A stretch of 64,000 nt of DNA, taken from the NCBI GenBank assembly GCA_017525025.1, contig JAFXUJ010000009.1, forward strand, positions 51,948 through 115,947, written 5' to 3'. Every line of letters starts with the position of its first letter. Position 1 is the first letter of the stretch. Made by a program: the position numbers and the translations under genes. Of the stretch, positions 374 to 57,989 are shown one piece after another. The DNA is from Elusimicrobiaceae bacterium (GTDB taxonomy: Bacteria; Elusimicrobiota; Elusimicrobia; Elusimicrobiales; Elusimicrobiaceae). The notes under the pieces were generated by a model. That model was not told the origin of the DNA. It saw only the letters and a program-made list of their open reading frames with translations, and ran no database searches.

Positions 374-438
374 CTATTTCTTGCGTTGATTCCACATTAT
401 CATAAAATTATATAATGGTATCAAAGAAGGGGGATATT

Positions 439-1422: not shown

Positions 1423-1483
1423 TTAAAAAAAGAACTCCCGCGGTTTTAAGAAAACTGGTACGATTTTGGCACAGGAGGAAACT

Positions 1484-1870: not shown

Positions 1871-1881
1871 AGACTTATATA

Positions 1882-1919
1882 TAAAAACCCCCGCTCATAA
1901 AAGCGGGGGTTTTATTTTT
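1882..1919. terminator. Bidirectional intrinsic terminator
   Basis: AAAACCCCCGCT / AGCGGGGGTTTT inverted repeat with A and T tracts between convergent genes. Confidence 0.85.
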
Positions 1920-1932
1920 GGATTTGTTAAAC

Positions 1933-2946: not shown

Positions 2947-2958
2947 ACTGGCTCCTTT

Positions 2959-3384: not shown

Positions 3385-3395
3385 GCTCCCTCCTT

Positions 3396-4232: not shown

Positions 4233-4293
4233 ATTTGTATCATAGCATATTTATATTTGTTTTTTGCTATTTTTTGAGAAAATTTTTCCGACG

Positions 4294-4325
4294 AAAAAAG
4301 CCGGAGCATATACGCTCCGGCTTTT
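4294..4325 (-). terminator. Intrinsic terminator after OmpA-family gene
   Basis: Perfect 12-bp AAAAGCCGGAGC / GCTCCGGCTTTT hairpin with T-tract on the minus strand. Confidence 0.85.
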
Positions 4326-4343
4326 AAACCGTATCCGGAAAGA

Positions 4344-4979
4344 TTATTGTAAATCTTTTTCGTTAGCGGTGATAGCCAATACGACGCGGCGGTTAGCAGC
4401 GCGGCCTTCGGCTGTATCGTTGCTGGCTACCGGGTTGGCCGGGCCATACCCTACATAGTTGATGCTCAACGTTTTTAAACCGGTGCCGAGCAAGTAATCG
4501 TATACAGCTTTAGCACGGGCCGTAGAGAGTTTTTGGTTGACGGCATCGGAACCGGTAGAATCGGTGTATCCTTGTACCACAATGCGGTTTTTCGGATATT
4601 TCTTAAGTACGCGGTTCAAATCCGTCAAGGTCTGTAAGGAAGCGGCGGATAATTCCGAGCTACCTACGGAGAACAAAATATCGTTTTTCAAGTAAACTTG
4701 AATACCGTTTTCCGTTTTAACCACATCTGCAATGGCAGCGAGTTCTTTGGCTTGTTTGTCGTAGTAGTTCCCCAACAAACCACCGGCGCTGGCACCGGCT
4801 AAGGCGCCTACGATAGCACCCGTACCGCTTTTACCACCCGTGTTGTGGGAGATGACAGCTCCGGCTACGGCTCCAACGGCCGCACCACCGGCGGCACCCC
4901 AGGCAGTCCGTTTGCCGGGAGTAGTACAAGCGGTAGCCAATAAAGAAACTGCCGCCGTGAGCAAAATAACTTTTTTCAT
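4344..4979 (-). CDS. OmpA family lipoprotein with glycine zipper (YiaD-like)
   Basis: Lipobox LATAC, Gly-zipper GAAGGAAVGAVAG, OmpA C-terminal motifs GYTDSTG, N.KLS..RA, NRRV. Confidence 0.92.
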   Translation of the reverse strand: MKKVILLTAAVSLLATACTTPGKRTAWGAAGGAAVGAVAGAVISHNTGGKSGTGAIVGALAGASAGGLLGNYYDKQAKELAAIADVVKTENGIQVYLKNDILFSVGSSELSAASLQTLTDLNRVLKKYPKNRIVVQGYTDSTGSDAVNQKLSTARAKAVYDYLLGTGLKTLSINYVGYGPANPVASNDTAEGRAANRRVVLAITANEKDLQ

Positions 4980-5076
4980 TTGCTAATTCTCCTTAATATA
5001 AGATAACAGGTACCTATATTTTACATTTTTCTGGGAAAAATAAAATAAATTTTATTTAAAGGCCGAAATTTCCAAT

Positions 5077-5290
5077 AAAATAGCCTCCGGTTTGGAGGCT
5101 ATTTGAAACGAAATAATTGTTCGCAACCGATTATTTATTGGTTACTTCCAATTCCATTTTGTTGTTTAACAAAAGATTCCCTGCGGGAACTTTTGAAACC
5201 GCCGCGAACAAAAATAGCCTCCGGTTTGGAGGCTATTTGAAACGAAATAATTGTTCGCAACCGATTATTTATTGGTTACTTCCAATTCCA
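5077..5290. repeat. 80-bp perfect direct repeat (5077-5156 and 5211-5290) separated by 54 bp
   Basis: Base-by-base identical; duplicates the last 8 codons, stop and terminator (AAATAGCCTCC/GGAGGCTATTT) of the 5265-5861 gene. Confidence 0.95.
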
Positions 5291-5861
5291 CGCGGCGGTT
5301 TTGAGCGCGGCCGGCGCGGGTTTTGTTCGTGGCGATCGGTTTGGTGGCACCGTATCCGACGAAAGATACTTTGTCAGCAGCGACACCTTCGTCCACTAAA
5401 GCCATAGCAACAGCTTTGGCGCGGCGTTGAGAAAGATCCACGTTGTAATCCGGGTTGCCGGTAGAATCGGTGTGACCGACTACGCGGATGGAATTATCGG
5501 GATAATTCTTGAGTGCAGTGGCTACTTGTTTGATTCTCTTGGTAGAATCAGCATCCAATTCATCGCTGTTGGTGGCGAAATTGATCGGTTCTTTAAAAGA
5601 CAAAACGGTCAAGTTTTCGGATTTTTTATTGACAGCTACCACATCTTGGAGAGATTTATCTTCGGTAACAATCATGGCCTTCGGTTGCGGTTTGGCAGCG
5701 ACGGCTTTTTTGGGGCAAACACAACCGGTTTTGTGGCTGTATTTGCATTTGCAAGCTACTTTCGCGCAGGTGTTGGAGCGATTGGGCTTGGTGGTGCATT
5801 TGGCACAGTGGCAGGCACCTAACAAAAGGGCAGCTGCCAAAATAGTGAATACTTTTTTCAT
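5265..5861 (-). CDS. OmpA family lipoprotein with Cys-rich N-terminal arm
   Basis: Lipobox LLGAC, 8 Cys in residues 17-49, OmpA domain (GHTDSTG, LSQRRA.AV, NRRVE). Confidence 0.9.
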   Translation of the reverse strand: MKKVFTILAAALLLGACHCAKCTTKPNRSNTCAKVACKCKYSHKTGCVCPKKAVAAKPQPKAMIVTEDKSLQDVVAVNKKSENLTVLSFKEPINFATNSDELDADSTKRIKQVATALKNYPDNSIRVVGHTDSTGNPDYNVDLSQRRAKAVAMALVDEGVAADKVSFVGYGATKPIATNKTRAGRAQNRRVELEVTNK

Positions 5862-5905
5862 GAAGTCTCCTTTGTTGGTTTGAGTTTATATCTTACCTTT
5901 TTATT

Positions 5906-6403
5906 TTACAATATCTTGCATGAAGGTGTGCCTTTTTTTTTCATAAGTTCGCGGTATAGCTGGTAAACGGGTTTGTGAAATTTAGGGTGTACATAGTCGG
6001 GCAAAATATAGGAAAGGGGTTTTAATACGAATTCCCGTTCATGTAGGCGCGGATGAGGGATAAAAAGGGGGGTTTGGTCATCGTCTTCAAAAAGGGCTTT
6101 GTCATCATAAAATAAGATGTCTAAATCAATCACGCGGGGGCCGTTGGGAAACGTCGGGGTACGGCCCAATTGGGTTTCCAACGCTTTGAGCTTTTTTAAT
6201 AAAGGCATAGGCTCATAAGGTGTGCTCAAAATAAGGACGGTGTTGATAAAATCTTCCTGCGCGGAAAATCCCTCCGGCTTGGAGATAATATAAGGGGCTA
6301 TTTCCTTAATAGCGCCCAATTCTTTTAGGGCGGTTACGGCGCGGTCTATATTTTCTTTGGCGGGAGCAATATTGCTGCCCAAGGCCAATACGGCTTGCGG
6401 CAT
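5906..6403 (-). CDS. folK: 2-amino-4-hydroxy-6-hydroxymethyldihydropteridine diphosphokinase
   Basis: LALGSNI, Q.DFINTV, GPRVIDLDILFY, IPHPRLHEREFVL.PL. Confidence 0.95.
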   Translation of the reverse strand: MPQAVLALGSNIAPAKENIDRAVTALKELGAIKEIAPYIISKPEGFSAQEDFINTVLILSTPYEPMPLLKKLKALETQLGRTPTFPNGPRVIDLDILFYDDKALFEDDDQTPLFIPHPRLHEREFVLKPLSYILPDYVHPKFHKPVYQLYRELMKKKGTPSCKIL

Positions 6404-6404
6404 A

Positions 6405-6755
6405 TTAGTTTCCTCCTTTATATTCTACCCAACGGTCTGCTTCCTCGGCTACGCGCACGCTATAAATTTGCGGAAAGAGAGGGAGTATTTGCTCAAAAAT
6501 CCAAATGGCGATCATTTCCGTGGTAGGGTGGGTGAAAATTTGGTTTAAATCCGCCCCGTCTAGGAAGGGATTGATTTTATTTTTTAAAAAATCTTGCACC
6601 GCGCGGAAGTCAATTAAAAATCCCTCCTCATTGATGGGCCCGAAGAACGTAACTTGGTAAGAAAAATGATGTGAGTGGCTTTCCTCGGCCAGTTGACCGC
6701 CGTGGCCGTGGCAAGCCGTAAAGTCGGAACATTGGGTTAAGTATATTTTCTTCAT
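6405..6755 (-). CDS. 6-pyruvoyl-tetrahydropterin synthase family protein, probably PTPS-III type (folB bypass)
   Basis: T-fold motifs FTACH, IDF, LN.IF..PTTE.IA.WI; E-x-x-H-S-H where QueD has C-x3-H-G-H; sits between folP and folK. Confidence 0.75.
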   Translation of the reverse strand: MKKIYLTQCSDFTACHGHGGQLAEESHSHHFSYQVTFFGPINEEGFLIDFRAVQDFLKNKINPFLDGADLNQIFTHPTTEMIAIWIFEQILPLFPQIYSVRVAEEADRWVEYKGGN

Positions 6756-7537
6756 TTTTGGGCCTCCTTATAGAAGGTAAGCAATTGACGTGTCTCTTTT
6801 ACGTCATGCACGCGCAAAATATCGGCACCTTGTTGCAAGGCCATTAAATGTGCGGCAAGTGTTTGCGGTAGGCGATCCTGTGGGGAATCGCCACCTTGGC
6901 TTAAAAAACTCTTGCGCGAAAGCGCCACCAGTAGCCGTACGCCTAAATTTTTAAAAAGAGATAGGTTTTTTAATAGTTCGTAGTTTTGTTCGCGTGTTTT
7001 GGCAAATCCAAAACCGACGTCAATAATCAGTTGTTCTTTGGCAAGGCCGTCCGCCTGAGCTTGCGAAATTTTTTGAGCCAGAAAATCTTTTACCTCGCTT
7101 AGTAAATCGGTATAATCGGTTTGTGCTTGCATGGTTTGTGGCGTGCCGCGCGAGTGCATTAAAACAAGTTGCGCGTTATGTTTTTTTATCAGTAAAAAAA
7201 GTTCTTTAGACGGTTGTCCGCTGACGTCGTTTATAACGGAAACCCCATTTGCCAGCCCGGCCGCGGCCACAGATACGTGCCGCGTGTCCAACGAAAGCGG
7301 TAACCGGGGATACCGGGGGTGCAAGGCCTTAATAAGGGGCAATACGCGGGTTTGTTCTTCCTGTTCGGTAACGGGAAAGGCCCCGGGGCGGGTGGATTCT
7401 CCACCAATATCCAATGCGTCTGCACCGTTTTGCACGTGCGTGCTTGCTCGCGCCAGCAGCGTGTCTAAACTACTGTCCGGATTTCCGTCATAAAATGAGT
7501 CCGGCGTAGCGTTCATAATTCCCCAAAGTTGTGGCAT
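6752..7537 (-). CDS. folP: Dihydropteroate synthase
   Basis: GIMNATPDSFYDG, DIGGESTRPGA, SLDT, NDVSG, LMHSRG.P.TM, D.GFGFAK, SRKSF, LRVHDV. Confidence 0.96.
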   Translation of the reverse strand: MPQLWGIMNATPDSFYDGNPDSSLDTLLARASTHVQNGADALDIGGESTRPGAFPVTEQEEQTRVLPLIKALHPRYPRLPLSLDTRHVSVAAAGLANGVSVINDVSGQPSKELFLLIKKHNAQLVLMHSRGTPQTMQAQTDYTDLLSEVKDFLAQKISQAQADGLAKEQLIIDVGFGFAKTREQNYELLKNLSLFKNLGVRLLVALSRKSFLSQGGDSPQDRLPQTLAAHLMALQQGADILRVHDVKETRQLLTFYKEAQK

Positions 7538-7546
7538 AGTGTGAGT

Positions 7547-8449
7547 TTATTTTTTTGCTCCGGCTGCTTTTAAAAGTTTTACAATTTCCGTATTGTTATC
7601 TTCGGTCGCTACCCGCAAAGGAGTATAGCCGGCTACGTTGGCCAAATGAACGTCTGCCTTATGTTCCAGTAATAATTTGACAATTTCCTTTTTGTTTCTG
7701 GCGGTGGCCAACAGCAAGGCCGTTACGCCGTCTTCACTTTGCAAGTTAATTTTAGCCCCATTATCAAGTAACAGTTTTACCATATCGGTTAATCCGTAGG
7801 CGCTGGCAATCATTAAAGGGGTTTCTTGCCAAGCGTTTAGGTTGTTGACGTCGGCTCCTTTCGCCAGAAGCAGTTTAACTGCCTCCATATTATTGCCTTC
7901 GGCGGCAAGGGCCAACGGGGAGAAGCCTTCTTGGTTCTGGGTATTTACGGCTGCGTGGTTACCAAGTAATAATTTGACAATTTCTGTATTATCTTTTTTG
8001 GTGGCTATGATAAGAGCGGTATCTCCGTTATCTAACGCCTTGATTTCCGGATTGGCTCCTTTGGACAGTAAGATTTTTACCGCGTCGGTGTTTCCGCGGT
8101 CGCAAGCCCACATAAGGGCGGTCCAGGGTTTGTTTAATTCTTCCCCCGAATAGCGAAAAATACCTTCCCCGTTGGGGCCTGTTTCTATACTATAATCCGT
8201 AACTTTTATTCTGCTGCCGGCATTTTGGCTAATGAAATTTACATCCGCTCCACGCCGAAGAGCATCTTCTATTTTTGTCAAATCATTTAGTTGGGCGACG
8301 GTGATTAAATCGTTGGATGCTTGCTGAAGGGCGGCGGTTTGTTGGTCAGCCTCGGGGGACGCCGGAGGTAACGGTTTACGTGGAGCAGACGATTCTTGAT
8401 TGCAGGCAAATAGACCCAATATCACAACTGCCCAAATACATTTTTTCAT
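7547..8449 (-). CDS. Ankyrin-repeat lipoprotein
   Basis: Lipobox LFAC; six clear ankyrin repeats (TAL/TPL...G...VKLLL..GA.VN) plus one degenerate repeat. Confidence 0.9.
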   Translation of the reverse strand: MKKCIWAVVILGLFACNQESSAPRKPLPPASPEADQQTAALQQASNDLITVAQLNDLTKIEDALRRGADVNFISQNAGSRIKVTDYSIETGPNGEGIFRYSGEELNKPWTALMWACDRGNTDAVKILLSKGANPEIKALDNGDTALIIATKKDNTEIVKLLLGNHAAVNTQNQEGFSPLALAAEGNNMEAVKLLLAKGADVNNLNAWQETPLMIASAYGLTDMVKLLLDNGAKINLQSEDGVTALLLATARNKKEIVKLLLEHKADVHLANVAGYTPLRVATEDNNTEIVKLLKAAGAKK

Positions 8450-11420: not shown

Positions 11421-14400
11421 ATGTTTAAAAATTTATTTTCGTTTTCTTCCAAAGAGCCGGAAAAATCGACGGGTTTAAAAACGCTTACACCGGAAATGTT
11501 CACCTTGCTTACGCATTTGCCGACGGCTGCGTTATTGGTAGATGAATCGGGGAAAATCACTTTCGCTAACGAGGCGGCGGCCTTGTTGTTGCAACGCAAA
11601 GTAGACAAATTGGTGGGGCTTAATATAAGCAAGGTGGGTATCTCTGCGGCCCGATTGCAAGAATTGCAAGCGGGAGAAACTCATGCTAAACAAGTCATAG
11701 AGATTGTAGACTTACAGGTAAACTCAAAGCCTGTAAACGTAGGAGCCCAACGATTGGGGGAGACTCCTTTTACGGTGATTACGTTGGAAGAAAGCCCTCA
11801 GATGCACCGGCTGGAAGAAGAAAAATCGTTTTTTGAATCTATTTTAAATGCTTACACTGCTGCCATCACGGTGCAAGATTTGGCAGGTAACTACGTCTTC
11901 GGTAACAAGCGGGCTCAACAGTTTTTTGGTTTTACGGTAGAACCGGGAGAAGGCGTTTCCATTTATCAATTACTTCCCAAGGCATTATCCGCTTCGCTGA
12001 ATCGTTTGGACGATGAAGTCCGCTCCGGTAAGGCGCAAGGAGATGCCGTCCGGTTGGAATATCAATCGGCCGACGGTGCGGCGCATATGCTATCTGTCTC
12101 TAAAACGATTTTGATAGGGGAGGACCGCAGTCCGCGTTTTATTCTTACCGTTTACGAAGAAACTACCCAACGTTACGAATGGGAACAGGATTTGCAACGC
12201 AGCAAAAAATTGTTAGAAGCTATTTTGAATAACATTCCCTTGGGCGTTTACACGCGCGATTGCGACGCCAAGGTTACGTTTATTAACCAACAAGGCTTGC
12301 AAATCTTAGGTGAAAAACCGAGTACGCTTGAACAAAAACATGAACGTCAAACCCAAGAAGAATCAGATTCGTATATCCAACGGGAACAGCAGATTTTAAA
12401 AGACGGTAAAACGTATGATTGCCCGCAAGAGGAATATGTGGACTCTTCCGGCAAAAAGCGTATTTTGCATACGATTAAAGTGCCCTTAATGGAAGCCGGA
12501 CCTAAGCCTTTGGTGCTGACTATTATTGAGGATGTTACCAAACGCTTGCAACAAGAAAAAGAAATTAACCGGGTGAATAGCTTTTTGTCTGCCATCGTGC
12601 AACATGCACCTATTGCGTTGTATGCCCGGGCGGAATCGGGGCGGATGCTCCTGCGTAATGCTAAATGTAATATGTTGTTCGGCGAGGCTAAAGATGAAGA
12701 TTTTGACGAACGCAGCGGTTTGCCGCATGAAACCGAAGAACAGGTTACCCAATATCTAAACCGGGAACATGACATCCTGGTTAAAGGGGAAACCCTGGAT
12801 ATCCCGGAAGAAGAATACACAACACCCGCCGGCGAAACTAAACTGCTTCACATGGTAAAGGCTCCCGTATTAGGGGATACGCCGGATACCCGATGCGTCA
12901 TTACGTTGGTGGAAGATATTACCGCTAAAAAGGCGCAAGAACGGGCTCTTGTTGAATCTAAAAACTTTTTACAGACGGTCATTGACCAGCTGCCGGTTTC
13001 TCTTTCCGTTAAAGATTATGACGGCAAGTATATCTTGTGGAATAAAAAGAGTGAAGAATTATTCGGGGCGGCTGCGCAAGACGTAATAGGAAAGACCGAT
13101 TATCGCTCTGACTTAAATAGAGAGCAAACAGAATTTGTGCGAGAAACCGATTTGCGTGTTTTTGAAAGCCGCCGAGAACAAAATATCCCGCAAGAACTTA
13201 TTTCTTCCGCGAGTGAAGGCATTAAGATCATGCATACGGTCAAAACCCCGGTGTTTAACCCAGATGGCACCCCGCATTGTTTGCTGGTAGTATCCGAAGA
13301 TATTACCGCCAAAACCAAAATGGAAAAACAGATTTTGGAAGCCCGAGACAAAAACACCTTGTTGGTTGAAAATGCCCGGGAAGGGGTGGTCATCTTAGAG
13401 GATGACAAAATCATTTATGCCAACCATGCTTTCTGCGCGTTATTAGGTTTTGAAACATTGGAAGATGTGTTGGGGAAGAAATTGCTGGATCTCTCAACGG
13501 AAAATCACCTCCTGTTCCTCAAAGAAAAGTACGACGCCGTTTTGGCCGGAACCGATCACCCCGAAGAATCTATTGAGGCCCATTTTGTTAAAGCAGACGG
13601 TTCCACCGTGGAGACGCGTTTCTCTGCCGTGCTGGCCAAATACTTGGGCCGGCGTATTGTGCTTGGGTTCGTCAGCGACGCGACAGCCGACAACCGTACC
13701 TTGCGCGAATTAAAAAATGAACGGGACCATTTCCGCCAAGCGTTTGAGAAGAGCACTGTTCCGGCTTTTATCCTTTCTTCCAAAGGATATATTACCGTGA
13801 TGAACGAGGCTTGCCGTCAATTGTTAGGGTTCACGGAGGGAGATAGAAACTTTTACCGTAATGTTTACATCCGGCCCAGTATCCCCTTGTCGGTACGTCG
13901 TTTGATGCGCGAAGGACAACCGGCGAAAATGGATTATGTGTTGGATTTTGATAAAGCGGCTGCCAAGTTCCCTCAATGGATGCATACGTCCGGAAAGTTG
14001 GAATTAGCGGTTTCTTTGGCACCGGTTTCCAAACGGGATACAAAAGAAGGATTGGTGGAGGCCGATTATTTGGTTTCTTTGCAACCCAAACCCCAATCGG
14101 TTAAGCCGCAACCGCCGGATATGGAAGGTGCTTCTTCCCCAACGTCAAAAGGAGATGGCCCTATGGCGTCTTTGCCACCGTTGCCTCCGTTCTTATCACC
14201 TAATTACCGTCAACAACGCACGGGCCAACCGATGTGGCTTTTGCCTAATAGCGAACCGTATGCGGTGTGCGATGAGAATTTTAACATTGTGGAGTGTAAC
14301 GAATTATTATGCACGCTGTGCGAATTGAAGGCGGACGAATTGAAAGGGCAGGATATCCGCCGGATTTTCCACCAAGACGATCAGCCGCTGGTAGCGCAAG

Positions 14401-16181
14401 ATTTTGAGCTGCTCAAGCGGGAGGGGAAACTCTCTAACCGGGAATATACCATCAATTTGGGTAGCAGTTTAGAGACGTGCCAGATCCGTTTAACGGCTGT
14501 CAAAGAAGAAAGTGGGGATTTCCTGTTTGTGTTGCATAGTTTGGCTTTCCACTTGCAGATCATGAAGATTTTGGAAGAACGTTCCGCACAACTCAGCGCG
14601 TTGCGTTATGCCATTGACGGAGCTGTTTTACAGATAGAGTTAGATAATTATAAATTAAGCCATTTTACACAGTTGAACAACTGGCTTTCTGCCAAAACGG
14701 GTTATGCTCATGAAGAACTGGCTCAAATGGTATTTAGTGAGTTGTTTTTACAGCCGTCCCAGGAAGATGTATCTGCGGAGAGATTGCTTGCGCAAGCTGA
14801 AACGCAAGTGTTGCAACAGGGAAAGGCTACCTTCCGTTTACCGTTACGTAAAAAGGATGGGTCTTCCTTAGATGCCCAAGTGATTTTGGCTTCGTTAGAT
14901 ATTCCCAAGAAACAAGGTTTGTTGGCGATTGTGTGTGATTTAACCGCCCAACAGGATGATTGGTCTAAGGACTCCAAGGAAGCACAAGAACTGGCCGGTT
15001 TGCGTCAAACCTTACCGGGATTGTATTTAAAGATGGATAGTAAAGGCAAAGTATTAGAGGTATTTTCCAACTTGCCTTATCTGGAAAATGCCCCGGCTCA
15101 AAAGTTGTTCTTGGGTAAGACGCCGGAGGCTTTTTGGCCGGAAGATGCCACCGCTTCCGCTCTGGCTACCATCCGGGAAGCGCTGGCGGTACGGGTCAGT
15201 TCCCGCTTTGAATTTGAATGGAAATATCAGGATGAGCCCCGCTATTATGAAGCGGCTGTATTCCCGCTTAAAAAACGTCGGGAAGTAGTCTTGTGGGTAA
15301 AAGATTCTTCCGAACGGCGTGTATACGATAGCCAGGTGCATGAGTTGTACCGTCTATCCCAAGAGGTTAAGTTAGATTTGACGCAAACGGTAGAGAAGTT
15401 GTTGGCCTTGGGAAAACGGATTTTCCAAGCGGATATTGGGTTTGTGTTGCGTTTTGAACGGAACCAGGAACAAGTAGACAGTTCTGTGCTATACACGACG
15501 CCCAACTATTTCCGTTTGGAACGGCACATGGAATATCCTGTAGAGGAATGCTTGCGGGATGTTGTTTATGGCAGTATGGTGTTAACGGCCGATCTGTCTG
15601 CGCAATCGTGTACACAGTGTATCCATAAAGTTAAAAAATTCGGTTCTATGATAGCAGCTCCGCTCTTTATAGAAGGCAGAGTGCAAGGGGCCTTATGTTT
15701 TGCTTCCGGCGCTACGCGTCGGGGTTTTCCACCCGGTACGGAGGAAATTTTGGGCCTGATGGCGCGGATATTGGGGCTTCGTATTGAACTGCGCGAAACG
15801 GATAAATTATTAGGGGATACGACGCGCTTATTTACCCGTACCTTGGAGCATGTACGCTTGCCGTCGGTTGTTATTGACCCGGATTTCCAAATTACAGCCG
15901 TTAACGAAGCTTTCCTGCAACTTACGGATCAGCGCAAAGGAAATGTATTGGGGAAAGACTTATTTGCGGAATTTGTGCGTCGCAGTGAAATCTCTAAGCA
16001 AGAGTTTCAACATGCGATGAGCCGTTCGTTCTCGGACATCTCTTTCCGGGTAAAATTGGATGTGTTCCAGACCAGTGGCGTTTGCCAACGGATTATTTGG
16101 GAAGTGTTCATTTGTAAGAACGCCGAAGGAAAAGTGGAAGGCTATGCCCTGATGGGCCAAACCGAACATTCGGCAATTTAG
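11421..16181 (+). CDS. Multi-PAS/PAC plus GAF domain protein with no recognisable output domain
   Basis: About 11 PAS N-terminal signatures (e.g. ILNNIPLGVYTRD...FIN, VIDQLPVSLSVKDYDGKYILWN, LVENAREGVVILEDDKIIYAN), one GAF-like segment near the C-terminus (LGKRIFQADIGFV...APLFIEGRVQGALCF), ends in a PAS; no TM, H-box, GGDEF or EAL seen. Confidence 0.85.
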   Translation: MFKNLFSFSSKEPEKSTGLKTLTPEMFTLLTHLPTAALLVDESGKITFANEAAALLLQRKVDKLVGLNISKVGISAARLQELQAGETHAKQVIEIVDLQVNSKPVNVGAQRLGETPFTVITLEESPQMHRLEEEKSFFESILNAYTAAITVQDLAGNYVFGNKRAQQFFGFTVEPGEGVSIYQLLPKALSASLNRLDDEVRSGKAQGDAVRLEYQSADGAAHMLSVSKTILIGEDRSPRFILTVYEETTQRYEWEQDLQRSKKLLEAILNNIPLGVYTRDCDAKVTFINQQGLQILGEKPSTLEQKHERQTQEESDSYIQREQQILKDGKTYDCPQEEYVDSSGKKRILHTIKVPLMEAGPKPLVLTIIEDVTKRLQQEKEINRVNSFLSAIVQHAPIALYARAESGRMLLRNAKCNMLFGEAKDEDFDERSGLPHETEEQVTQYLNREHDILVKGETLDIPEEEYTTPAGETKLLHMVKAPVLGDTPDTRCVITLVEDITAKKAQERALVESKNFLQTVIDQLPVSLSVKDYDGKYILWNKKSEELFGAAAQDVIGKTDYRSDLNREQTEFVRETDLRVFESRREQNIPQELISSASEGIKIMHTVKTPVFNPDGTPHCLLVVSEDITAKTKMEKQILEARDKNTLLVENAREGVVILEDDKIIYANHAFCALLGFETLEDVLGKKLLDLSTENHLLFLKEKYDAVLAGTDHPEESIEAHFVKADGSTVETRFSAVLAKYLGRRIVLGFVSDATADNRTLRELKNERDHFRQAFEKSTVPAFILSSKGYITVMNEACRQLLGFTEGDRNFYRNVYIRPSIPLSVRRLMREGQPAKMDYVLDFDKAAAKFPQWMHTSGKLELAVSLAPVSKRDTKEGLVEADYLVSLQPKPQSVKPQPPDMEGASSPTSKGDGPMASLPPLPPFLSPNYRQQRTGQPMWLLPNSEPYAVCDENFNIVECNELLCTLCELKADELKGQDIRRIFHQDDQPLVAQDFELLKREGKLSNREYTINLGSSLETCQIRLTAVKEESGDFLFVLHSLAFHLQIMKILEERSAQLSALRYAIDGAVLQIELDNYKLSHFTQLNNWLSAKTGYAHEELAQMVFSELFLQPSQEDVSAERLLAQAETQVLQQGKATFRLPLRKKDGSSLDAQVILASLDIPKKQGLLAIVCDLTAQQDDWSKDSKEAQELAGLRQTLPGLYLKMDSKGKVLEVFSNLPYLENAPAQKLFLGKTPEAFWPEDATASALATIREALAVRVSSRFEFEWKYQDEPRYYEAAVFPLKKRREVVLWVKDSSERRVYDSQVHELYRLSQEVKLDLTQTVEKLLALGKRIFQADIGFVLRFERNQEQVDSSVLYTTPNYFRLERHMEYPVEECLRDVVYGSMVLTADLSAQSCTQCIHKVKKFGSMIAAPLFIEGRVQGALCFASGATRRGFPPGTEEILGLMARILGLRIELRETDKLLGDTTRLFTRTLEHVRLPSVVIDPDFQITAVNEAFLQLTDQRKGNVLGKDLFAEFVRRSEISKQEFQHAMSRSFSDISFRVKLDVFQTSGVCQRIIWEVFICKNAEGKVEGYALMGQTEHSAI

Positions 16182-22837: not shown

Positions 22838-22901
22838 GCCTAGTTCATTTCTGGGTCTTTTGACCCTTGCAAATATACGTAAAAAGAATCATACTAAGGG
22901 T

Positions 22902-24095
22902 ATGAACATCAAACATTTCGTCACTACGGTTTTCTTCTTTTTAACGGTTACTACGCCTCTTTGCGCGCAAGAGCAGGCAGTCTTTAAAGTGGGCAAGAAT
23001 GCTGCCGAGATATTGCTGAAAATGGAAAGACAAACTGCCCGTGGTCTAATGGTACGCCCGCCGTACAAGCCGGAACCCGTACCACTCATTGAATTAAAGC
23101 GTTCTTTATCCGGTAAAGTGTCTTTACAATCTATATCGGTGCCCCCCGTGGTTACGCCTTCGCAAGTTGCGCATCTTGTTTCATCTGCGCAGATCCCAAA
23201 ATCAAGGGAATACCACTCTCCTGAGGCAAATCTTATGGAGATTGGGGTGCCGGATGTACTTCCCGGGCATTATGTAAGCCCATATAGGCAGTTTTTACAA
23301 GAAGATTGGGAGTGGGAAAGCCCGAGATTGCAAGAACGTTCTTGTGAAATATCCGGCGGGTTGCAGACTTGTCAGCAAGATATTATTGCGACGCGTTTGG
23401 CGGCGCTTGATTTGGGAATGCCACCGGGGACTTCCATGGAAGAGATGGAAATGCGTGCCCGGGCTGTAGGAATACCGACTCAAACAATTCAAACGTCCAG
23501 CGTGCCGGAGTTGTGGTTGCTGGTCCATTATTATGAAACGATGTCAAACGGGGCAAAAATCCCCTCTTTATTTGATGCGTTTGCGGAAAAGGAGCATATA
23601 GAAAAAGGAGAAGCCGCCCGGGACAAGTGGGCCCAAGACCAACCCAATTTTGTAGAAGAAAATTATGGAGTTACTGACTACCAACAGCCCTTTCGCTCCT
23701 CGGTTAAAGATTTACGCATATTGCTGATTAATGATGAGCAAAAGGTTATTGATTCTTTTGTGAAATTATCGGCTTCGGATTCGCGAATTTCCGTTATGTC
23801 CGTTAATGATGTGGCATCGGCTCTTCGTCTGTTACGCAGAAGCCCGACCTATTATGATGTGATACTAACCGATTATGTAACCCGCGCGGGTAGTGCCCCG
23901 GAATTAGGCATGTGGTCGCACGAACATGGAATGTTAGTTCCTATTGTATTCTTTTCCAAAGCGGGGGGAACAGCCAGTTGGTTATATTCCTATAATATGG
24001 CAGGTTCTATCAGCCCGTCTGAACCGGTACAAAATGTGGTCAATTATTTAAGCAATTTAGTCGCCACGGGCCGGGCGTACCCAAACGGTAAATAA
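22902..24095 (+). CDS. Signal-peptide protein with C-terminal atypical receiver (REC) domain
   Basis: Signal-like N-terminus ending PLCA-Q; C-terminal LRILLINDE...YDVILTDY...VPIVFFS; conserved REC Lys not evident. Confidence 0.7.
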   Translation: MNIKHFVTTVFFFLTVTTPLCAQEQAVFKVGKNAAEILLKMERQTARGLMVRPPYKPEPVPLIELKRSLSGKVSLQSISVPPVVTPSQVAHLVSSAQIPKSREYHSPEANLMEIGVPDVLPGHYVSPYRQFLQEDWEWESPRLQERSCEISGGLQTCQQDIIATRLAALDLGMPPGTSMEEMEMRARAVGIPTQTIQTSSVPELWLLVHYYETMSNGAKIPSLFDAFAEKEHIEKGEAARDKWAQDQPNFVEENYGVTDYQQPFRSSVKDLRILLINDEQKVIDSFVKLSASDSRISVMSVNDVASALRLLRRSPTYYDVILTDYVTRAGSAPELGMWSHEHGMLVPIVFFSKAGGTASWLYSYNMAGSISPSEPVQNVVNYLSNLVATGRAYPNGK

Positions 24096-24098
24096 AAT

Positions 24099-25163
24099 AT
24101 GAAAGTAATTCGTGTCGGTTTGGCTATACTTACGGGGTCCGTTTGTGTTTCTTCCTTGTATGCTCAAAAGGAAGCGCAAGCGGTTATTCAAGCACCGCGG
24201 GTTGTGGCTTGGGTGGAACGCCAAGCGGTCCGCGGCGTAGGAGCCTCGGTACGCCCGCCGTACAAGCCGGAACCCGTAACGAGCGAAATGCTCCACGGAG
24301 AAATTATGTTTCACGCCGAGTTGGCCCCTGCTGTGTCAAATTATTCCCGCCCCCAAGCAGCCATCCGCCCCGTACGCAAAAACCCCTTATATGTAAGCCC
24401 TTTTCGGGACTTTTTGCGGGAAGAGTGGGAATTACCGGCCAATCCGCAAAAGGAACCTATTTCCTCCGCGTCCATTCCCCGCGGGTATTCAGGCCGGTCC
24501 TTGGAATCGTTGCGGATGGAATGTAGGAGCTTGGGGATTCCTGCTCAACAATGTGAAACACTCTCCCGCGAGGAATTAGCAAATTTTCTGCTTCACTATA
24601 AATCACGCTTGGAGAGTACGCAAGCGGCCTCTCTTTTGGATAAGGGGGCACGTACTTCCCCCAAAAAGCATACGGAATTAGATGTAAAAACATGGGCTCA
24701 GGCGCAACCGGATTTTATAGTGTCCAATTATTTAGATCACGGAGAAGAATATACCGAACCCTTTACCGGGCCGGTAACCCCTTTACGCATATTGGTGGTA
24801 AACGACGAGTGGGAAGAGGTTGAATTATTCCGTGCGGCGGCGTGGAAAGATGGAAACGTTCGGATTGACTACGCCGAAAGCGTACAAAAAGCCATGTATA
24901 AGTTGGAAAATCGTCTGGACGGGTATGATATTGTGTTATTGGACCATGATATGTATGGGGGGAACGGATCTATTCTTTCTATGTGGATGCACGAGAAAAA
25001 CATTTCCATTCCCGCGATTCTTTTTTCAAGGGAATATATTGCGCCGGAGTGGTTGTATAAATTTAACATCAAAGGCCGTATTTACGTGGATGAAGACCCG
25101 CAAGCTGTGCTTAACTTCGCCCGCAATATCGTAACTACGGGAAAAGCCTATCCTGCTAAATAA
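24099..25163 (+). CDS. Paralog: signal-peptide protein with C-terminal atypical receiver domain
   Basis: Signal-like N-terminus ending SLYA-Q; shares VRPPYKPEPV and YVSP.R.FL.E.WE with the upstream gene; LRILVVNDE...YDIVLLDHD...IPAILFS. Confidence 0.7.
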   Translation: MKVIRVGLAILTGSVCVSSLYAQKEAQAVIQAPRVVAWVERQAVRGVGASVRPPYKPEPVTSEMLHGEIMFHAELAPAVSNYSRPQAAIRPVRKNPLYVSPFRDFLREEWELPANPQKEPISSASIPRGYSGRSLESLRMECRSLGIPAQQCETLSREELANFLLHYKSRLESTQAASLLDKGARTSPKKHTELDVKTWAQAQPDFIVSNYLDHGEEYTEPFTGPVTPLRILVVNDEWEEVELFRAAAWKDGNVRIDYAESVQKAMYKLENRLDGYDIVLLDHDMYGGNGSILSMWMHEKNISIPAILFSREYIAPEWLYKFNIKGRIYVDEDPQAVLNFARNIVTTGKAYPAK

Positions 25164-51432: not shown

Positions 51433-51462
51433 TTTTAGTGTCCAAAAGCAGGTAGATTAGCA
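51433..51462 (+). repeat. Boundary repeat, diverged copy
   Basis: TTTTAGTGTCCAAAAGCAGGTAGATTAGCA, similar to the 56655 and 57953 copies. Confidence 0.7.
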
Positions 51463-51612
51463 CTATTTCAAAATGTCAATTTCTTTCTGTAAATTTGCGC
51501 AGGATTTGCCAGCCCATTTTGGGGCTTTTTTTCTTCATAAATCGGTTAGAATATTGTACAATGATGTATAAGTGAGATTTTTGAATAAAGATTTGAATTT
51601 ATCAATAAAAAC

Positions 51613-54600
51613 ATGCGTAAAGATTTTAAACAAATTATAAGCGAAGTGAAAAGGTTATTAGCCCTACTGATAACTGTCCAAATGATTTGTTGGCACAGTG
51701 TGAATATTGCGTGGGGTGCGGAATATGATTCGCTTATAGATGCAATACAAGCAACAACTACCCCGCGGACATATACACTTGATGGAAATGAAACCTCTTC
51801 AACTGCCCTGGGAAATATCGGAGGATGGAATTCTGTTCTTACCATAGATGGCGGAGAGGGGCATTACGGAATAAATAATACTTCAACGGCAACCGATACA
51901 AGACTTTTCGTAGGCAAAAACCAGACGTTTTACTTGCAGAATCTTGGAACTTATACCACAACTACTTCCAGCTCCATTGTTGAAGGAGTGGATATCATTA
52001 CGGAAGTTACCGTAGGAAATTCCATAAATAATTTTGGAAAAACGAGTGACAGAGTGGGATTTCTCAGATCTGCGGGAACTTCACACATTTCTAATTCTGT
52101 CTTTTATAATAACCGCGGTAGATATGGTGTAGTACAAAATAGAGAACAAGGAACCATGTCCATAACAGGTTCTGTTTTTGCTAATAACAATGTGCCACAG
52201 GGTGCTGTTCATAACGATGGCACAAATAGAATGACTGAAATATCGGATTCTATATTTTATAATAATACCGCCGTCACCCAGACTTCCGGGGATACCGACT
52301 TGCGAAATCGCAGCGCCAGTGCTATTTTTAATAAACCAGATAGGACGATAGACATCATATCCGGTTCTCAATTTATCGGTAATACTACCATCTCTACTGC
52401 CGATGGCCAGCAAACCGGAACAATATATAATAATGGCGGAACAATTGGCGAAATATCAAATTCTGTATTTTATAATAATAGTAATCAAAGCGGATCTGTC
52501 ATACATAATGTAAGCAGCACTACAGCCGCAGGTGTATTAAACAACGGTACAATAACAACGATATCCAATTCAGTATTTGTTCAAAATACTTCTGTAGGAT
52601 CCGGTGCCGCAATATCCAATACAAGTGATTCAATCATAGGAGCCATAACCGATTCTCTCTTTATTTCTAATACCGCGACAGCCAACGGCGGTGCAATTTA
52701 TAATGAAGGTGATATTGCTGCATTAGCAGGTACTTTTACATCTAACAGTGCCGACTCGAACGGCGGTGCAATTTATAATACCGGAACGGTAACAATCACA
52801 TCATCCGATGGTGCTAATACAACCTTCACCGGTAATACGGCAAACGGAGTTTCAAATGCTTTGTATAATACCGGAACTGTGAATATGAATGCCGGGACGG
52901 ATAGTTCAATTATTTTTAATGATAAAATAACAGGTTCCGACGGTGTAATTACTCTTGGTGGGGCGGGTGTAGTTGAATTTAACGAAACCGTAGCGGGAAA
53001 TGGCGTTACATTAAATTCGGGCACACTCAAATTAGGCTTGGCGGACAGTTTGCAAGATGCCACGAGCTTTACTGTAAACGGCGGAACATTAGATTTGCGT
53101 AACAACGAAGTCCATACTTATCAATTGGGCCAAAGCACCTCCATCGGCGGTACAGTGGGATTGGCCATAGATGCTGATTTGGCCGGTGCAACTCCGGTAG
53201 CTGATATGATTACAGCGGCCGGTGAAGTTACCGGTTCGGGCAGTTTTGTTTTTTCAGCAGCTAATATCAATGTCATGAGTTATGCCGATGAACAAACTCC
53301 TTTTTGGGTACAGGTAACGGATGAGAATTTACGAAATTATGCCGGCTTAGGTTCAAATGCCAATATACATATAACAGATAACGAACCGGAAGGTTACTTT
53401 ATAACCTATGAAACATCACACGATGGTGTAGACGCCGGTTTCCTTAGATTTGAACATGATACATTAGCTAATGCGATAGCGTCGTCCGTTGAAGAAAAAG
53501 CCTATACCATGGGAACGGATGAGACCTTAATCAATACTCCGGCGCTAGGTGGTGATTCGCTAACTGTAAACGGAAACAGCCAAGGTCATTCAATAACAGG
53601 TAATGGCGGTGCAGGGTTAGCGGTCGGTAATGGTCAAACCTTATCGTTAAATAATATAGGTGTAGATAGTGAAGGCAATGTAACCGGAGCCGGACTTAAC
53701 AATTTTAATACTGCCGTATCAAATGATGCAAACGGAACCGCCAATATCTATCATGCGACGTTTAGTAATAATACTACGGATATTGATAATAATGGCGTAG
53801 CCAATATGTCCGGAACCGTTATATTTGATAATGCCCAAGGAGACGGTACCTTAAATATAGCAAAAGATAGCGACGGAAATTCCTCTGCCGTAACGGTGAA
53901 TAATAGTTTAGAACAAAACAACATCAATGTAGAAAGCGCAAATACGTTGACCAATGATAACGCGACCATTACCGTGAACGCTGCCTTGGATAACGCCGGA
54001 ACGATAGCCGGTACCGGGACGAGTGTGCTTGTAATCAATGGGAATTCCGGCAATAGCGGTACGATTGACCAAGGAATATTGGTAACCGCCGCGAGCGCCA
54101 CATTAACCAATACTGGCGCCCTCACCGTGCAAACTACATTAACAAACAGTGGGACGATTGCAAATAATAACGATTTAACGTTAGCGGGTAGTGATATAAC
54201 TAATGCCGGAACGGTAAACGGCACCGGAACGACTTATGTCACAGGCAATGTAACCAATAAAGGAACCATTTCTCAGAACGGAATACAAATATCTAGCGGT
54301 CAAACGTTAACCAATGATAGTGGCGCTACTATTACTACAACGGATACAGCTGCCGATGCGGGATTCCAAAACAACGGAACCGTATTAAATGATGGCGCTA
54401 TTTCGGTTGCCGGCGGTAGCAATGCGGGCTCCATTACCGGAAACGGTACATTTGCAAACAGCGGAGATTTCACAAATAGTGATTATATTGAGCAGGATAC
54501 TGTTACTAATAGCGGAACAATTACTACCGATTCAGAGAATTTAGTAGCTGCGAACGGAATTACCAATAACGGTACTTTGGTATATAATGCCGGAAGTCAA

Positions 54601-56595
54601 ACCGTTAGTGATATTACGGGTGATGGTAGTGATAACTCCCATATTGAGTTAAGAACAAATGATTCGTTTACCATTGATAATACGATTGCAAACACGTCTA
54701 TTGACTTGTATGATTCAACCTTGACATTCGGTAGCAACGGCAATATTTCGGGAATCACAGCGTTGAATGTCAACGGCGGCGGGCTGAATGTATTAGACGG
54801 AACCATTACCTCTACCGATCTTGGAACCGTTAATTTGAATGATGAGGCCACCTTGGCAATAGATTTTGACTTGAGTACTTTAACTTCTGATTCATTTAAT
54901 GCGGTTGTTAATAATAATGGCGGCCTGTTCAATATAAATCAAGTTAATCTGCTTGGCACAATAACTGCGGATTATGTCAACATCAATCTAGGGGATGCAA
55001 CCGGCTTAGGACAGGAAAATGTAACTTCTGCAACCATTGAGTTGCCCTCCGTTATGACTCCTATTCGCAGAATTAACGGACGCATAGAAGATGGTTGGTT
55101 AACCTACGAAGGGACCGGCACGGATATAGATGATTTCAATCCGGCCGTGTTGGCCACTCCGGTGGTTGCACAAGTCGGCATGCACACCATGCTCAATAAT
55201 ACATTCCACCATGCTTATGAGCATGCGGATTGGTACACCAAATTTTCTGCGCAAGAAAGAGCCGCTATACTGGACGGAAACCGCAATGCAACGAATAATG
55301 TTGCGAATGGCGGCTATCAGGATAAGTCAAATTTGCGCGATTCATATAAAGCCAATGCGGCCATATGGTTTAAATCGTATGCTACTTTTGAGGATATCCC
55401 ATTACGGCCGGGACCGAAAGTGGATGTCAATTCGTACGGGTCCTTGGTAGGAGTTGATTCCGATTTCCAAGATTGGGGGCGCGAATGGTATGGTGTGACC
55501 ACCGGTTATGTCGGATATAACGGCGCGCAGATTGATTATCCGGAGGTTAAAGCCTCTATGGATGGGGGATTGGTTGGTGTAACCCAAACCTTCTACAAAA
55601 ACAATTTTTGGACAGGAGTTACCGCCAATGTGGGGGCCGATTTTGTAAACACACGAACCATGTACGGGCGTGAAAATTCCTCCCTATTTTCAACGGGGTT
55701 AGGTACTCAAACCGGTTATAATATTGAGTTGGGTGCCGGCAACTTTATCCTTCAGCCTATTTGGTTCATGAACTATGGTATGATCAAGACGTTTGATTAT
55801 ACGAATGCTGCCGGGGTTAAAATTGATCCCAAGCCGTTACATACCATCCAATTGAATCCAACCTTGAGACTCGTAGGGAATGTAAAGGGCTGGCAACCGT
55901 ATGCCTCTGTCGGAATGGTTTGGAACTTAATGGATAAGACCGATGTAATGGCAGATTCTGTAAAATTGCCGGAGATAAGCGTTAAACCGTATGTGCGCTA
56001 TGATGTGGGGGTACAAAAAGCCATTGGCAACAGATTTACCGGATTTATACAAGCCGCGGGCTATAATGGCGGAAGAAACGGCATAAATATCGCCGGTGGT
56101 TTGCGTTGGGCTTTTGGCAAAGGCGGTAAAAATACGGAAACGGTTAAAGGGAATAATGGTTCCGGGAGTGCTATAGAAAGTCAAAATAACCTAGAACCGG
56201 AAACCGTAGAACCGGTTGTAGCCGTGCAGACGCCCGATGTAAAACAAGAAACCGGCAAGGCCGAGACACCTGTTGTAAATGTACAAAAAACCGGTAATTC
56301 GCAACCAAATGGTAAAACAGAAGTACCGGCCGTTAATACGCAGGATCTTGCCAAAGAACAAAAAACTGCTCAAACCGAAGGAGCGGTTGCCGAGGTCCAG
56401 CCTATTGATAAAGGCCACATAGATACTCCGGCCGAAGAATCGGTTACAAATGCGCCGAACGTTAAGGATGTTCGGAAAGAGGCGCAATCTGAAAAATCCG
56501 GCGCAAAGACGGAAGAAAATAATAATTTAGCAATGGCTATTGCTATTGGTGCCGTTCTGCTACTTCTTGTATTCTTGCTTACCCGCAAATGGTAA
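51613..56595 (+). CDS. Large autotransporter-like surface protein with Pmp-type GGAI repeats, putative beta-barrel, and C-terminal linker plus TM anchor
   Basis: Signal peptide; Asn/Thr/Gly-rich beta-helix repeats (F..N.....GGAIYN); barrel-like region ending GGLRWAF (56115); then 159 aa ending LAMAIAIGAVLLLLVFLL-TRKW. Confidence 0.8.
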   Translation: MRKDFKQIISEVKRLLALLITVQMICWHSVNIAWGAEYDSLIDAIQATTTPRTYTLDGNETSSTALGNIGGWNSVLTIDGGEGHYGINNTSTATDTRLFVGKNQTFYLQNLGTYTTTTSSSIVEGVDIITEVTVGNSINNFGKTSDRVGFLRSAGTSHISNSVFYNNRGRYGVVQNREQGTMSITGSVFANNNVPQGAVHNDGTNRMTEISDSIFYNNTAVTQTSGDTDLRNRSASAIFNKPDRTIDIISGSQFIGNTTISTADGQQTGTIYNNGGTIGEISNSVFYNNSNQSGSVIHNVSSTTAAGVLNNGTITTISNSVFVQNTSVGSGAAISNTSDSIIGAITDSLFISNTATANGGAIYNEGDIAALAGTFTSNSADSNGGAIYNTGTVTITSSDGANTTFTGNTANGVSNALYNTGTVNMNAGTDSSIIFNDKITGSDGVITLGGAGVVEFNETVAGNGVTLNSGTLKLGLADSLQDATSFTVNGGTLDLRNNEVHTYQLGQSTSIGGTVGLAIDADLAGATPVADMITAAGEVTGSGSFVFSAANINVMSYADEQTPFWVQVTDENLRNYAGLGSNANIHITDNEPEGYFITYETSHDGVDAGFLRFEHDTLANAIASSVEEKAYTMGTDETLINTPALGGDSLTVNGNSQGHSITGNGGAGLAVGNGQTLSLNNIGVDSEGNVTGAGLNNFNTAVSNDANGTANIYHATFSNNTTDIDNNGVANMSGTVIFDNAQGDGTLNIAKDSDGNSSAVTVNNSLEQNNINVESANTLTNDNATITVNAALDNAGTIAGTGTSVLVINGNSGNSGTIDQGILVTAASATLTNTGALTVQTTLTNSGTIANNNDLTLAGSDITNAGTVNGTGTTYVTGNVTNKGTISQNGIQISSGQTLTNDSGATITTTDTAADAGFQNNGTVLNDGAISVAGGSNAGSITGNGTFANSGDFTNSDYIEQDTVTNSGTITTDSENLVAANGITNNGTLVYNAGSQTVSDITGDGSDNSHIELRTNDSFTIDNTIANTSIDLYDSTLTFGSNGNISGITALNVNGGGLNVLDGTITSTDLGTVNLNDEATLAIDFDLSTLTSDSFNAVVNNNGGLFNINQVNLLGTITADYVNINLGDATGLGQENVTSATIELPSVMTPIRRINGRIEDGWLTYEGTGTDIDDFNPAVLATPVVAQVGMHTMLNNTFHHAYEHADWYTKFSAQERAAILDGNRNATNNVANGGYQDKSNLRDSYKANAAIWFKSYATFEDIPLRPGPKVDVNSYGSLVGVDSDFQDWGREWYGVTTGYVGYNGAQIDYPEVKASMDGGLVGVTQTFYKNNFWTGVTANVGADFVNTRTMYGRENSSLFSTGLGTQTGYNIELGAGNFILQPIWFMNYGMIKTFDYTNAAGVKIDPKPLHTIQLNPTLRLVGNVKGWQPYASVGMVWNLMDKTDVMADSVKLPEISVKPYVRYDVGVQKAIGNRFTGFIQAAGYNGGRNGINIAGGLRWAFGKGGKNTETVKGNNGSGSAIESQNNLEPETVEPVVAVQTPDVKQETGKAETPVVNVQKTGNSQPNGKTEVPAVNTQDLAKEQKTAQTEGAVAEVQPIDKGHIDTPAEESVTNAPNVKDVRKEAQSEKSGAKTEENNNLAMAIAIGAVLLLLVFLLTRKW

Positions 56596-56628: not shown

Positions 56629-56662
56629 AAAAAGCCCCTTACTTGAGTGTAGGGGGCTTTTT
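56629..56662 (+). terminator. Terminator after the autotransporter-like gene
   Basis: AAAAAGCCCCTTAC / GTAGGGGGCTTTTT; part of a longer imperfect palindrome at 56607-56680. Confidence 0.85.
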
Positions 56663-56691
56663 AGTGTCTAAAAGTATGTAGGTTGGCATAA
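56655..56691 (+). repeat. Boundary repeat copy A (37 bp)
   Basis: GGCTTTTTAGTGTCTAAAAGTATGTAGGTTGGCATAA; 35/37 identical to 57953-57989. Confidence 0.9.
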
Positions 56692-57952: not shown

Positions 57953-57989
57953 GGCTTTATAGTGTCCAAAAGTATGTAGGTTGGCATAA
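57953..57989 (+). repeat. Boundary repeat copy B (37 bp)
   Basis: GGCTTTATAGTGTCCAAAAGTATGTAGGTTGGCATAA; partial TTATAGTGTCCAA again at 58035-58047. Confidence 0.9.

Follow-up and report, generated by a model that had tools for sequence, protein, structure and literature searches.

The gene at positions 51613..56595 (plus strand) of a 64,000-nucleotide stretch of an Elusimicrobiaceae genome (contig JAFXUJ010000009.1, positions 51,948 to 115,947; the whole stretch is called the window below) is one open frame of 1,660 amino acids (aa) and encodes a protein that is, by predicted fold, a type Va (classical) autotransporter. Its β-barrel is not the end of the chain. After residue F1501 the protein continues for 159 aa (aa 1502-1660; tail region TEVPAVNTQDLAK) through an acidic, disordered linker into a hydrophobic helix and a basic end, and the C-terminus reads ...NNNLAMAIAIGAVLLLLVFLLTRKW. 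We read the helix as a candidate stop-transfer anchor in the inner membrane, which would make the autotransporter a single-chain tether across the cell envelope, and we give this reading a probability of about one half. The features of the gene are:

51613..51717, plus strand: Sec-type signal peptide, aa 1-35 (read from the translation)
51718..55152, plus strand: passenger, aa 36-1180 (repeat motifs, model matches, homology)
55153..55215, plus strand: α-helical linker predicted in the barrel pore, aa 1181-1201 (AlphaFold2 helix, model residues 22-42)
55360..56115, plus strand: 12-strand β-barrel translocator, aa 1250-1501 (AlphaFold2 strands, model residues 91-341; Foldseek)
56116..56526, plus strand: post-barrel linker, aa 1502-1638, 137 aa (sequence comparison, AlphaFold2)
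56527..56580, plus strand: hydrophobic helix L1639-L1656 (LAMAIAIGAVLLLLVFLL), predicted membrane anchor (hydrophobicity, AlphaFold2)
56581..56595, plus strand: basic end TRKW and stop codon (translation)

A classical autotransporter barrel followed by a linker and a helix

An AlphaFold2 model covering aa 1160-1660, built with 30 homologues, predicts twelve strands in aa 1250-1500 with a predicted local distance difference test (pLDDT) score of about 90. The barrel ends in a β-signal-like GLRWAF (aa 1496-1501), whose last nucleotide is 56115. When the model was compared with the PDB using Foldseek, the best 18 matches were all type Va β-domains (AIDA-I, EspP, AaaA, BrkA, EstA, NalP, and Hbp), with E-values from 3e-15 (AIDA-I) to 1e-10 and target-side TM-scores of 0.64-0.81, except that the two full-length entries, EstA and AaaA, have 0.37-0.38. 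The combination of pore helix and barrel matches the fold of EspP and NalP before cleavage. The Pfam autotransporter β-domain (PF03797) did not match the protein, even with the isolated barrel at E <= 10, and a sequence-profile search of the PDB returned no match, so membership in type Va is assigned by fold only. With these predictions, the region that the first-pass annotation had called barrel-like becomes a 12-strand autotransporter barrel. In NalP and EspP, the last barrel strand ends in the periplasm. Given the even strand count and the pore helix, the C-terminus of this barrel is likewise expected to be periplasmic, and the tail would begin there.

About 48 residues (aa 1202-1249, positions 55216-55359) that vary in length and are modeled with low confidence lie between the pore helix and strand 1, whereas in solved type Va barrels the helix leads into strand 1 almost without a gap. 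This insert may be an extra periplasmic loop typical of the Melainabacteria-type autotransporter family.

The first 12 residues of the linker (GKGGKNTETVKG) resemble the Melainabacteria sequence GKEGKPIEKVQG, and the rest is acidic and composed of degenerate repeats of about 19 aa (..EPVVxVQ..K.Q.D..). The net charge of the linker is -5 here and -5 to -20 among orthologues, and AlphaFold2 predicts that it is disordered (aa 1505-1635, pLDDT below 40). The helix L1639-L1656 has a mean Kyte-Doolittle value of 3.04 over 17 residues, and AlphaFold2 places a terminal helix at aa 1637-1659 with a pLDDT of about 77. Orthologues end in RKRK, RRKRR, QRKGK, or RRKVGRK; by the positive-inside rule, the basic end would lie in the cytoplasm. 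Pfam and NCBIfam models find no domain in the tail (no coiled coil, SLH, OmpA, or LysM), only partial matches to anchor models. The translation and the model confirm the initial description of a barrel that is followed by a 159-aa extension with an 18-residue hydrophobic helix and TRKW.

The tail is translated and conserved

Linker, helix, and basic end are common to nine proteins that form one clade. Their tails comprise 140-178 aa, all nine linkers have at least 112 aa, and the helix is retained in 9 of 9 members, though its sequence changes. The open frame and the helix are retained in at least six orthologues at 53-97% identity, and the frame is open through the tail to the same kind of end in seven DNA loci. 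Ratios of nonsynonymous to synonymous substitution rates (dN/dS, Nei-Gojobori) are below 1 throughout: the barrel has 0.07-0.2, the linker 0.25-0.5, and the helix 0.07-0.4. The identical protein occurs on three independently assembled contigs, and a 97% relative (over the barrel-and-tail region) is found in four other samples in the same chromosomal slot. The gene end is not at WAF, and a terminator-like hairpin lies 3' of the stop codon. The first-pass annotation had considered that homologues might stop right after WAF; at least six orthologues instead keep the tail architecture, and together with the dN/dS values and the independent assemblies they mark the tail as a genuinely translated, conserved frame.

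The gene belongs to a family of Melainabacteria autotransporters

Searching 1.84 billion cluster representatives with the barrel (HMMER) identified relatives in 1,209 clusters (50% identity clusters). Among named genomes, the helix-bearing copies come from Elusimicrobium and Elusimicrobiaceae assemblies, and the other matches are mostly from Melainabacteria/Gastranaerophilales, whose genomes often contain a dozen paralogues each; a large number of additional matches carry the label "uncultured bacterium" only. In a maximum-likelihood tree of 80 barrels, the Elusimicrobia copies form one clade (100% support) that lies inside the Melainabacteria radiation (enclosing branches, 99 and 100%), and its nearest neighbors are rumen Melainabacteria. 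The GC content at third codon positions (GC3) of the gene is 0.38, that of host genes is 0.44-0.50, and the Melainabacteria loci have an overall GC of 0.37. The host genome has 1.55 Mb and 45% GC and is 99% complete; the window also encodes lipopolysaccharide-related and OmpA-type genes, as read from the translations. Because the Elusimicrobia clade is nested inside the Melainabacteria family, and because 6 of the 145 Elusimicrobiaceae genomes carry the gene, in a variable slot bracketed by repeats, tree and gene distribution make it well supported that an Elusimicrobiaceae ancestor acquired the gene from gut or rumen Melainabacteria. A resemblance to gut Melainabacteria surface proteins, and with it horizontal acquisition, had been suggested in the first-pass annotation; both passenger and barrel indeed fall in that family. 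In native Elusimicrobia autotransporters, which reach no more than 38% identity, the terminal aromatic residue is the last one of the chain (zero tail), as had been stated for classical autotransporters in general.

Tails in the family have a median length of 48 aa, and 11 of 253 members have tails of at most 3 aa. In Melainabacteria they are basic, with 16% Lys and a mean net charge of +6, and a hydrophobic helix is missing. They typically begin with GKEGKPIEKVQ and usually end in ...RKVLKQLSxxQKxxLGxKxQNTTRTTxxxxLKQL, and short ones end in ...KKEIKSL. Most of the roughly 1,200 clusters have such a basic tail; across the family proteins P0010-P0254 and loci L006-L081, the tail-end consensus is [RK]K[VI][IL]KQL..Q[KR]..L....QNTTRTT....LKQL. 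No Pfam or NCBIfam model matches the Melainabacteria basic tail, and in an AlphaFold model of one Melainabacteria member, run to test for docking of the tail on the barrel, the tail is disordered. The KQL-type end may be an undescribed periplasmic attachment or recognition motif. Judged by these comparisons, the special feature of the Elusimicrobiaceae protein is the acidic linker with its helix, and a post-barrel tail as such is normal in the donor family.

About the first 12 residues of the donor-type tail are retained in the Elusimicrobia clade, and the remainder consists of acidic repeats, helix, and basic end; the helix arose once, after the transfer. A tail-only search of a 5.8-billion-protein set matched just two orthologues, P0003 and P0004, and led to no source for the linker and the helix. 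The EPVVxVQ repeat looks more like an expansion of the donor family's KPIEKVQ / AEPAVQQ element. A Gram-positive cell-wall-anchor donor for the tail was considered and set aside, its support being limited to the generic layout.

Melainabacteria-type autotransporter contigs are also present in ten differently labeled assemblies (L017, L026, L029, L043, L047, L054, L058, L068, L069, and L071), whose labels are Muribaculaceae, Methanomethylophilaceae, Acutalibacteraceae, Clostridium, Lachnospiraceae, or Gammaproteobacteria. The four that are in the tree (L026, L054, L058, and L068) fall among Gastranaerophilales sequences, and the ten contigs are probably mis-binned, or the bins mislabeled. A literature search for autotransporters in Elusimicrobium or Melainabacteria gave nothing relevant.

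The helix as a candidate anchor in the inner membrane

The classical stop-transfer signature is a stretch of 18-19 strongly hydrophobic residues with 2-5 basic residues behind it, here at the C-terminus, and Sec would let such a stretch pass laterally into the inner membrane while the chain is still in the translocon. We favor a tether across the envelope because the tail carries this signature and because the 137-aa linker is long enough for the barrel to reach the β-barrel assembly machinery (BAM) and the outer membrane. Counted as indirect support are that none of the nine linkers falls below 112 aa, that sortase, exosortase, and rhomboid were not found in the genome, that no other protein was found with this tail, the similar periplasmic span of a spanin-like prophage lipoprotein in this genome, and the stabilizing periplasmic domains of trimeric autotransporters. 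A tether had been one of the two options in the first-pass annotation, and it is compatible with all observations. Along the proposed route, Sec would export the chain starting from the N-terminus, and the last 22 residues (18 hydrophobic residues and TRKW) would act as the stop-transfer segment, staying in the inner membrane and leaving the basic end on the cytoplasmic side. BAM would insert the 12-strand barrel in the outer membrane, and the barrel would export the Pmp-repeat passenger of approximately 1,100 aa. The acidic disordered linker, with a contour length of about 45-50 nm, would cross the periplasm, and the finished protein would thereby sit in both membranes. The KQL-type tail of the donor presumably holds some Melainabacteria envelope component that the new host lacks, and in the new host this attachment element would have been replaced once by a membrane helix that took over its role. 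The likely benefit would be stability of the adhesin or resistance to its extraction from the outer membrane. We infer the location of the helix, its retention, and this benefit. The fuller statement, that the mature protein is both an outer-membrane β-barrel and an inner-membrane helical anchor whose donor attachment motif was lost and whose helix was gained after transfer, we hold at slightly under even odds. To our knowledge, no autotransporter or other BAM-assembled β-barrel protein is known as a single-chain envelope tether, and this one would be the first.

Several points weigh against such a tether. We know of no autotransporter precedent for a C-terminus that is held at the inner membrane while BAM binds an internal β-signal. 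The constraint on the linker is only moderate and is relaxed relative to the barrel. The helix is preceded by a semi-conserved motif, EEPxT[EGK]TQxNNx[LW], which includes EPATG in orthologue P0007, and a layout of motif, helix, and basic residues is typical of cleaved sorting signals. The LPXTG sorting-signal model TIGR01167 reaches 14.6-18.4 bits in 6 of 9 tails scanned, with matches that start at model position 4-12 of 34. Biogenesis might also be less efficient in this host without the dedicated SurA-like gene described below. The pre-helix motif and the partial LPXTG-model scores keep alive two readings in which the helix is removed, either after service as a transient anchor or as part of a cleaved sorting signal.

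As a transient anchor, the helix would hold the exported chain at the inner membrane until BAM engages the barrel, and a periplasmic or membrane protease would then remove it. This is possible but unlikely. The device would be comparable to extended signal peptides that slow release, and what is left would be a tail free in the periplasm, like that of the Melainabacteria relatives; the tails of the donor family function without any helix, the disordered linker is open to proteases, and the motif just ahead of the helix is polar and semi-conserved. Long autotransporters often have devices that slow their release from Sec (10.64898/2026.01.22.700529). However, no protease stood out as a dedicated candidate and the genome lacks rhomboid, linkers as long as those of the nine proteins are not required if the helix is discarded near the inner membrane, and the basic cytoplasmic end is conserved.

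It is very improbable that the helix instead resides elsewhere, be it in the inner leaflet of the outer membrane, at BAM, at the barrel itself, or in an oligomer of neighboring adhesins. Trimeric autotransporters do oligomerize via periplasmic coiled coils (10.64898/2026.01.22.700529), and AlphaFold gives no position of the helix relative to the barrel. The classical stop-transfer signature nevertheless stands at the extreme C-terminus, where sideways release from Sec is expected, and helical outer-membrane anchors are rare.

We consider it very improbable that the tail is a cleaved, degenerate LPXTG- or CTERM-type signal through which a transpeptidase couples it to peptidoglycan or lipid. The protein has the tripartite order of motif, helix, and basic cluster, and it shares with Gram-positive LPXTG sorting signals a Pro/Thr/Glu/Lys-rich repeat spacer, a hydrophobic helix, and a basic end. 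The C-terminal 38 aa reach 17.6 bits with TIGR01167 here, five orthologues reach 14.6-18.4 bits, the NPXTG-type model NF033846 scores 20.8 bits in one orthologue, and P0007 carries EPATG. These model matches are, however, limited to the helix and the basic part. An LPXTG-type pentapeptide was not found before the helix, either here, where the sequence is AKTEE, or in the orthologues, which have EPxT[EGK], and the host has two membranes. Sortase (PF04203) had no match at E <= 0.1 in the 99% complete genome, in which the controls matched, and neither exosortase (PF09721) nor rhomboid (PF01694) was found in it. CTERM models (PEP-CTERM, GlyGly-CTERM) run on the tails do not reach their cut-offs. 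No second protein with this tail was found in this genome or among the 145 Elusimicrobiaceae genomes, where the tail is confined to one gene; a scan of this genome for proteins with a helix and basic residues at the C-terminus gave, apart from this one, 11 candidates, of which one is a spanin-like prophage protein and the rest are apparently ordinary polytopic membrane proteins. The cleavable CTERM-type signal that the first-pass annotation had offered as an option is weakened by these results.

That the tail is a functionless, tolerated appendage or an annotation or assembly artefact, such as a stop lost after WAF, is largely refuted: the linker is less constrained than the barrel and donor-family tails range from 2 to 209 aa, but the frame and helix are kept in at least six orthologues at 53-97% identity, dN/dS is below 1 for linker and helix alike, the same sequence was recovered in independent assemblies, and the terminator is located beyond the tail.

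Comparison with known systems

The protein resembles AIDA-I, EspP, NalP, Hbp, BrkA, and EstA in its signal peptide, repeat-rich passenger, pore helix, and 12-strand barrel. Solved type Va proteins end at the last strand, whereas this one has 159 aa more and ends in a membrane helix. Its barrel is 41-57% identical to those of the Melainabacteria/Gastranaerophilales family, and both share the tail start GK.GK..E.V.G, but the tails of that family are Lys-rich, basic, and helix-free, in contrast to the acidic linker and helix found here.

Trimeric (type Vc) autotransporters of Terrabacteria nearly always have periplasmic domains that stabilize them; these domains are lineage-restricted and are needed for protein stability in Veillonella (VtaA) (10.64898/2026.01.22.700529). 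Like the tail described here, with its 159 aa, they extend more than 10 residues past the barrel and are periplasmic. They differ in that they follow trimeric barrels and form coiled coils, alone or combined with peptidoglycan-binding SLH or OmpA domains, whereas the Elusimicrobiaceae protein has a disordered linker and a helix on a monomeric barrel. The survey that describes them, which is restricted to trimeric autotransporters, mentions no tail composed of a disordered linker and a membrane helix (10.64898/2026.01.22.700529).

Unimolecular spanins of the T1 gp11 type are outer-membrane-attached chains with a C-terminal inner-membrane helix (PMC6139136). As in the arrangement proposed here, one chain reaches both membranes, with approximately 100-140 periplasmic residues between them. 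Spanins have a lipid anchor and act in membrane fusion at lysis, and there is no homology, so the likeness is an analogy of topology only. A likely unimolecular spanin is encoded in the same genome (G000:C1:6280-6864), and its periplasmic part has approximately 122 aa, compared with 137 aa in the linker.

Signal peptide and passenger

Reading of the translation gives a signal peptide with a basic N-region (MRKDFKQIISEVKR), a hydrophobic core, and a cleavage-site-like AWG|A at aa 33-36. The passenger is high in Thr, Asn, and Gly. F..N motifs spaced 25-35 residues apart run from aa 164 to aa 405, and GGAIYN stands at aa 359 and again at aa 384, which outlines a Pmp-type repeat region at aa 164-410. 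The POMP_repeat model TIGR01376 matches the passenger weakly, at 19.7 bits against a cut-off of 15, and PF02415 reaches 18.4 bits, under its cut-off of 20.6. The Asn/Thr/Gly-rich, Pmp-like character noted at first sight is thereby borne out, with the motifs located and TIGR01376 above its cut-off. A cap-like module occurs twice, at aa 36-110 and aa 615-688. Self-BLAST misses this duplication at 1e-3, but the two copies align with a local score of 73, compared with 31.8 +/- 6.1 for shuffled sequences, and 0 of 2,000 shuffles scored as high, so the duplicated module that had been proposed is real. The passenger is homologous to those of the Elusimicrobia orthologues (51-77% identity) and partly homologous to passengers of the Melainabacteria family.

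Locus context

Direct repeats and a terminator-like element flank the gene:

51436..51463, plus strand: diverged copy of the 28-nucleotide core direct repeat TAGTGTCYAAAAGTATGTAGGTTGGCAT, upstream of the gene (repeat family D2)
56630..56662, plus strand: GC-rich hairpin and T run (AGCCCCTTAC...GTAGGGGGCTTTTT), intrinsic-terminator-like, 35 nucleotides past the stop codon (sequence reading; repeat family D8)
56662..56689, plus strand: second copy of the 28-nucleotide repeat (repeat search, genome-wide scan)

A third copy lies at 57960-57987, beyond the next module of two genes (SnoaL-like and flavin mononucleotide reductase). The genome-wide scan found three copies of the repeat in the whole genome, all in this region. 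Each copy follows a terminator-like hairpin, and the repeats bracket the autotransporter gene and the two-gene module; in a close strain (L106), another gene replaces the SnoaL-like gene. The 28-nucleotide repeats may mark the boundary of a cassette. The slot between the genes for an acetyltransferase and a sodium/phosphate transporter is variable, with a different transporter gene in genome G235. A clean empty site was looked for in relatives and none was obtained.

In 4 of the 6 carrier genomes, a second SurA-like lipoprotein (SurA_N and rotamase/peptidyl-prolyl isomerase domains) is encoded directly downstream of the autotransporter:

L002:4567-5691: SurA-like lipoprotein beside the autotransporter
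L003:4600-5799: SurA-like lipoprotein beside the autotransporter
L005:4627-5748: SurA-like lipoprotein beside the autotransporter
L010:4783-5907: SurA-like lipoprotein beside the autotransporter

These four copies are 72-100% identical to each other and approximately 32% identical to the housekeeping copy. The second SurA-like lipoprotein is absent from the genome studied here, in which the housekeeping copy (G000:C14:84248-85333) is the only one. The gene pairing suggests that a periplasmic chaperone of its own is of advantage to the acquired adhesin.

Other observations in the window and the genome

Contig C1 of this genome (G000) carries a prophage segment at 365-8358 (locus L118). A reverse transcriptase gene (RVT_1, 3997-5178) lies close to that of a 576-aa protein that weakly matches a carbohydrate-binding module, an arrangement that is possibly a diversity-generating retroelement. 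Further prophage genes encode a small holin-like protein (5319-5681), an endolysin with GH108 and PG_binding_3 (5705-6283), and a lipoprotein that overlaps the endolysin (6280-6864), has a C-terminal helix and a KRKF end, and resembles a unimolecular spanin. A phage integrase is encoded on the minus strand (7147-8358).

In the window, positions 11421-16181 encode a 1,586-aa cytoplasmic protein with, apparently, many PAS-like repeats and a GAF-like region near the C-terminus; on reading the translation, no obvious output domain was seen. Two adjacent paralogous secreted proteins of 411 and 354 aa are encoded at 22860-24095 and 24099-25163, and they have a common N-terminal region (..RPPYKPEPV..) and a receiver-domain-like C-terminal part.

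Implications

Type V secretion is taught with the barrel as the end of the protein. Periplasmic additions to it have been recognized only recently, on trimeric autotransporters of Terrabacteria. The proteins described here extend this picture to a very large monomeric type Va family of gut Melainabacteria that almost always has a conserved post-barrel tail, the end of which was exchanged for a membrane helix after transfer to Elusimicrobiaceae. The result may be one chain anchored in both cell membranes, an arrangement not described so far for the autotransporter secretion family and a natural template for display scaffolds across both membranes. Should the helix remain in the inner membrane, it would become testable how BAM handles a substrate whose C-terminus is held on the Sec side, whether load-bearing adhesins need anchoring beneath the outer membrane, and how foreign surface proteins are refitted to a new envelope.

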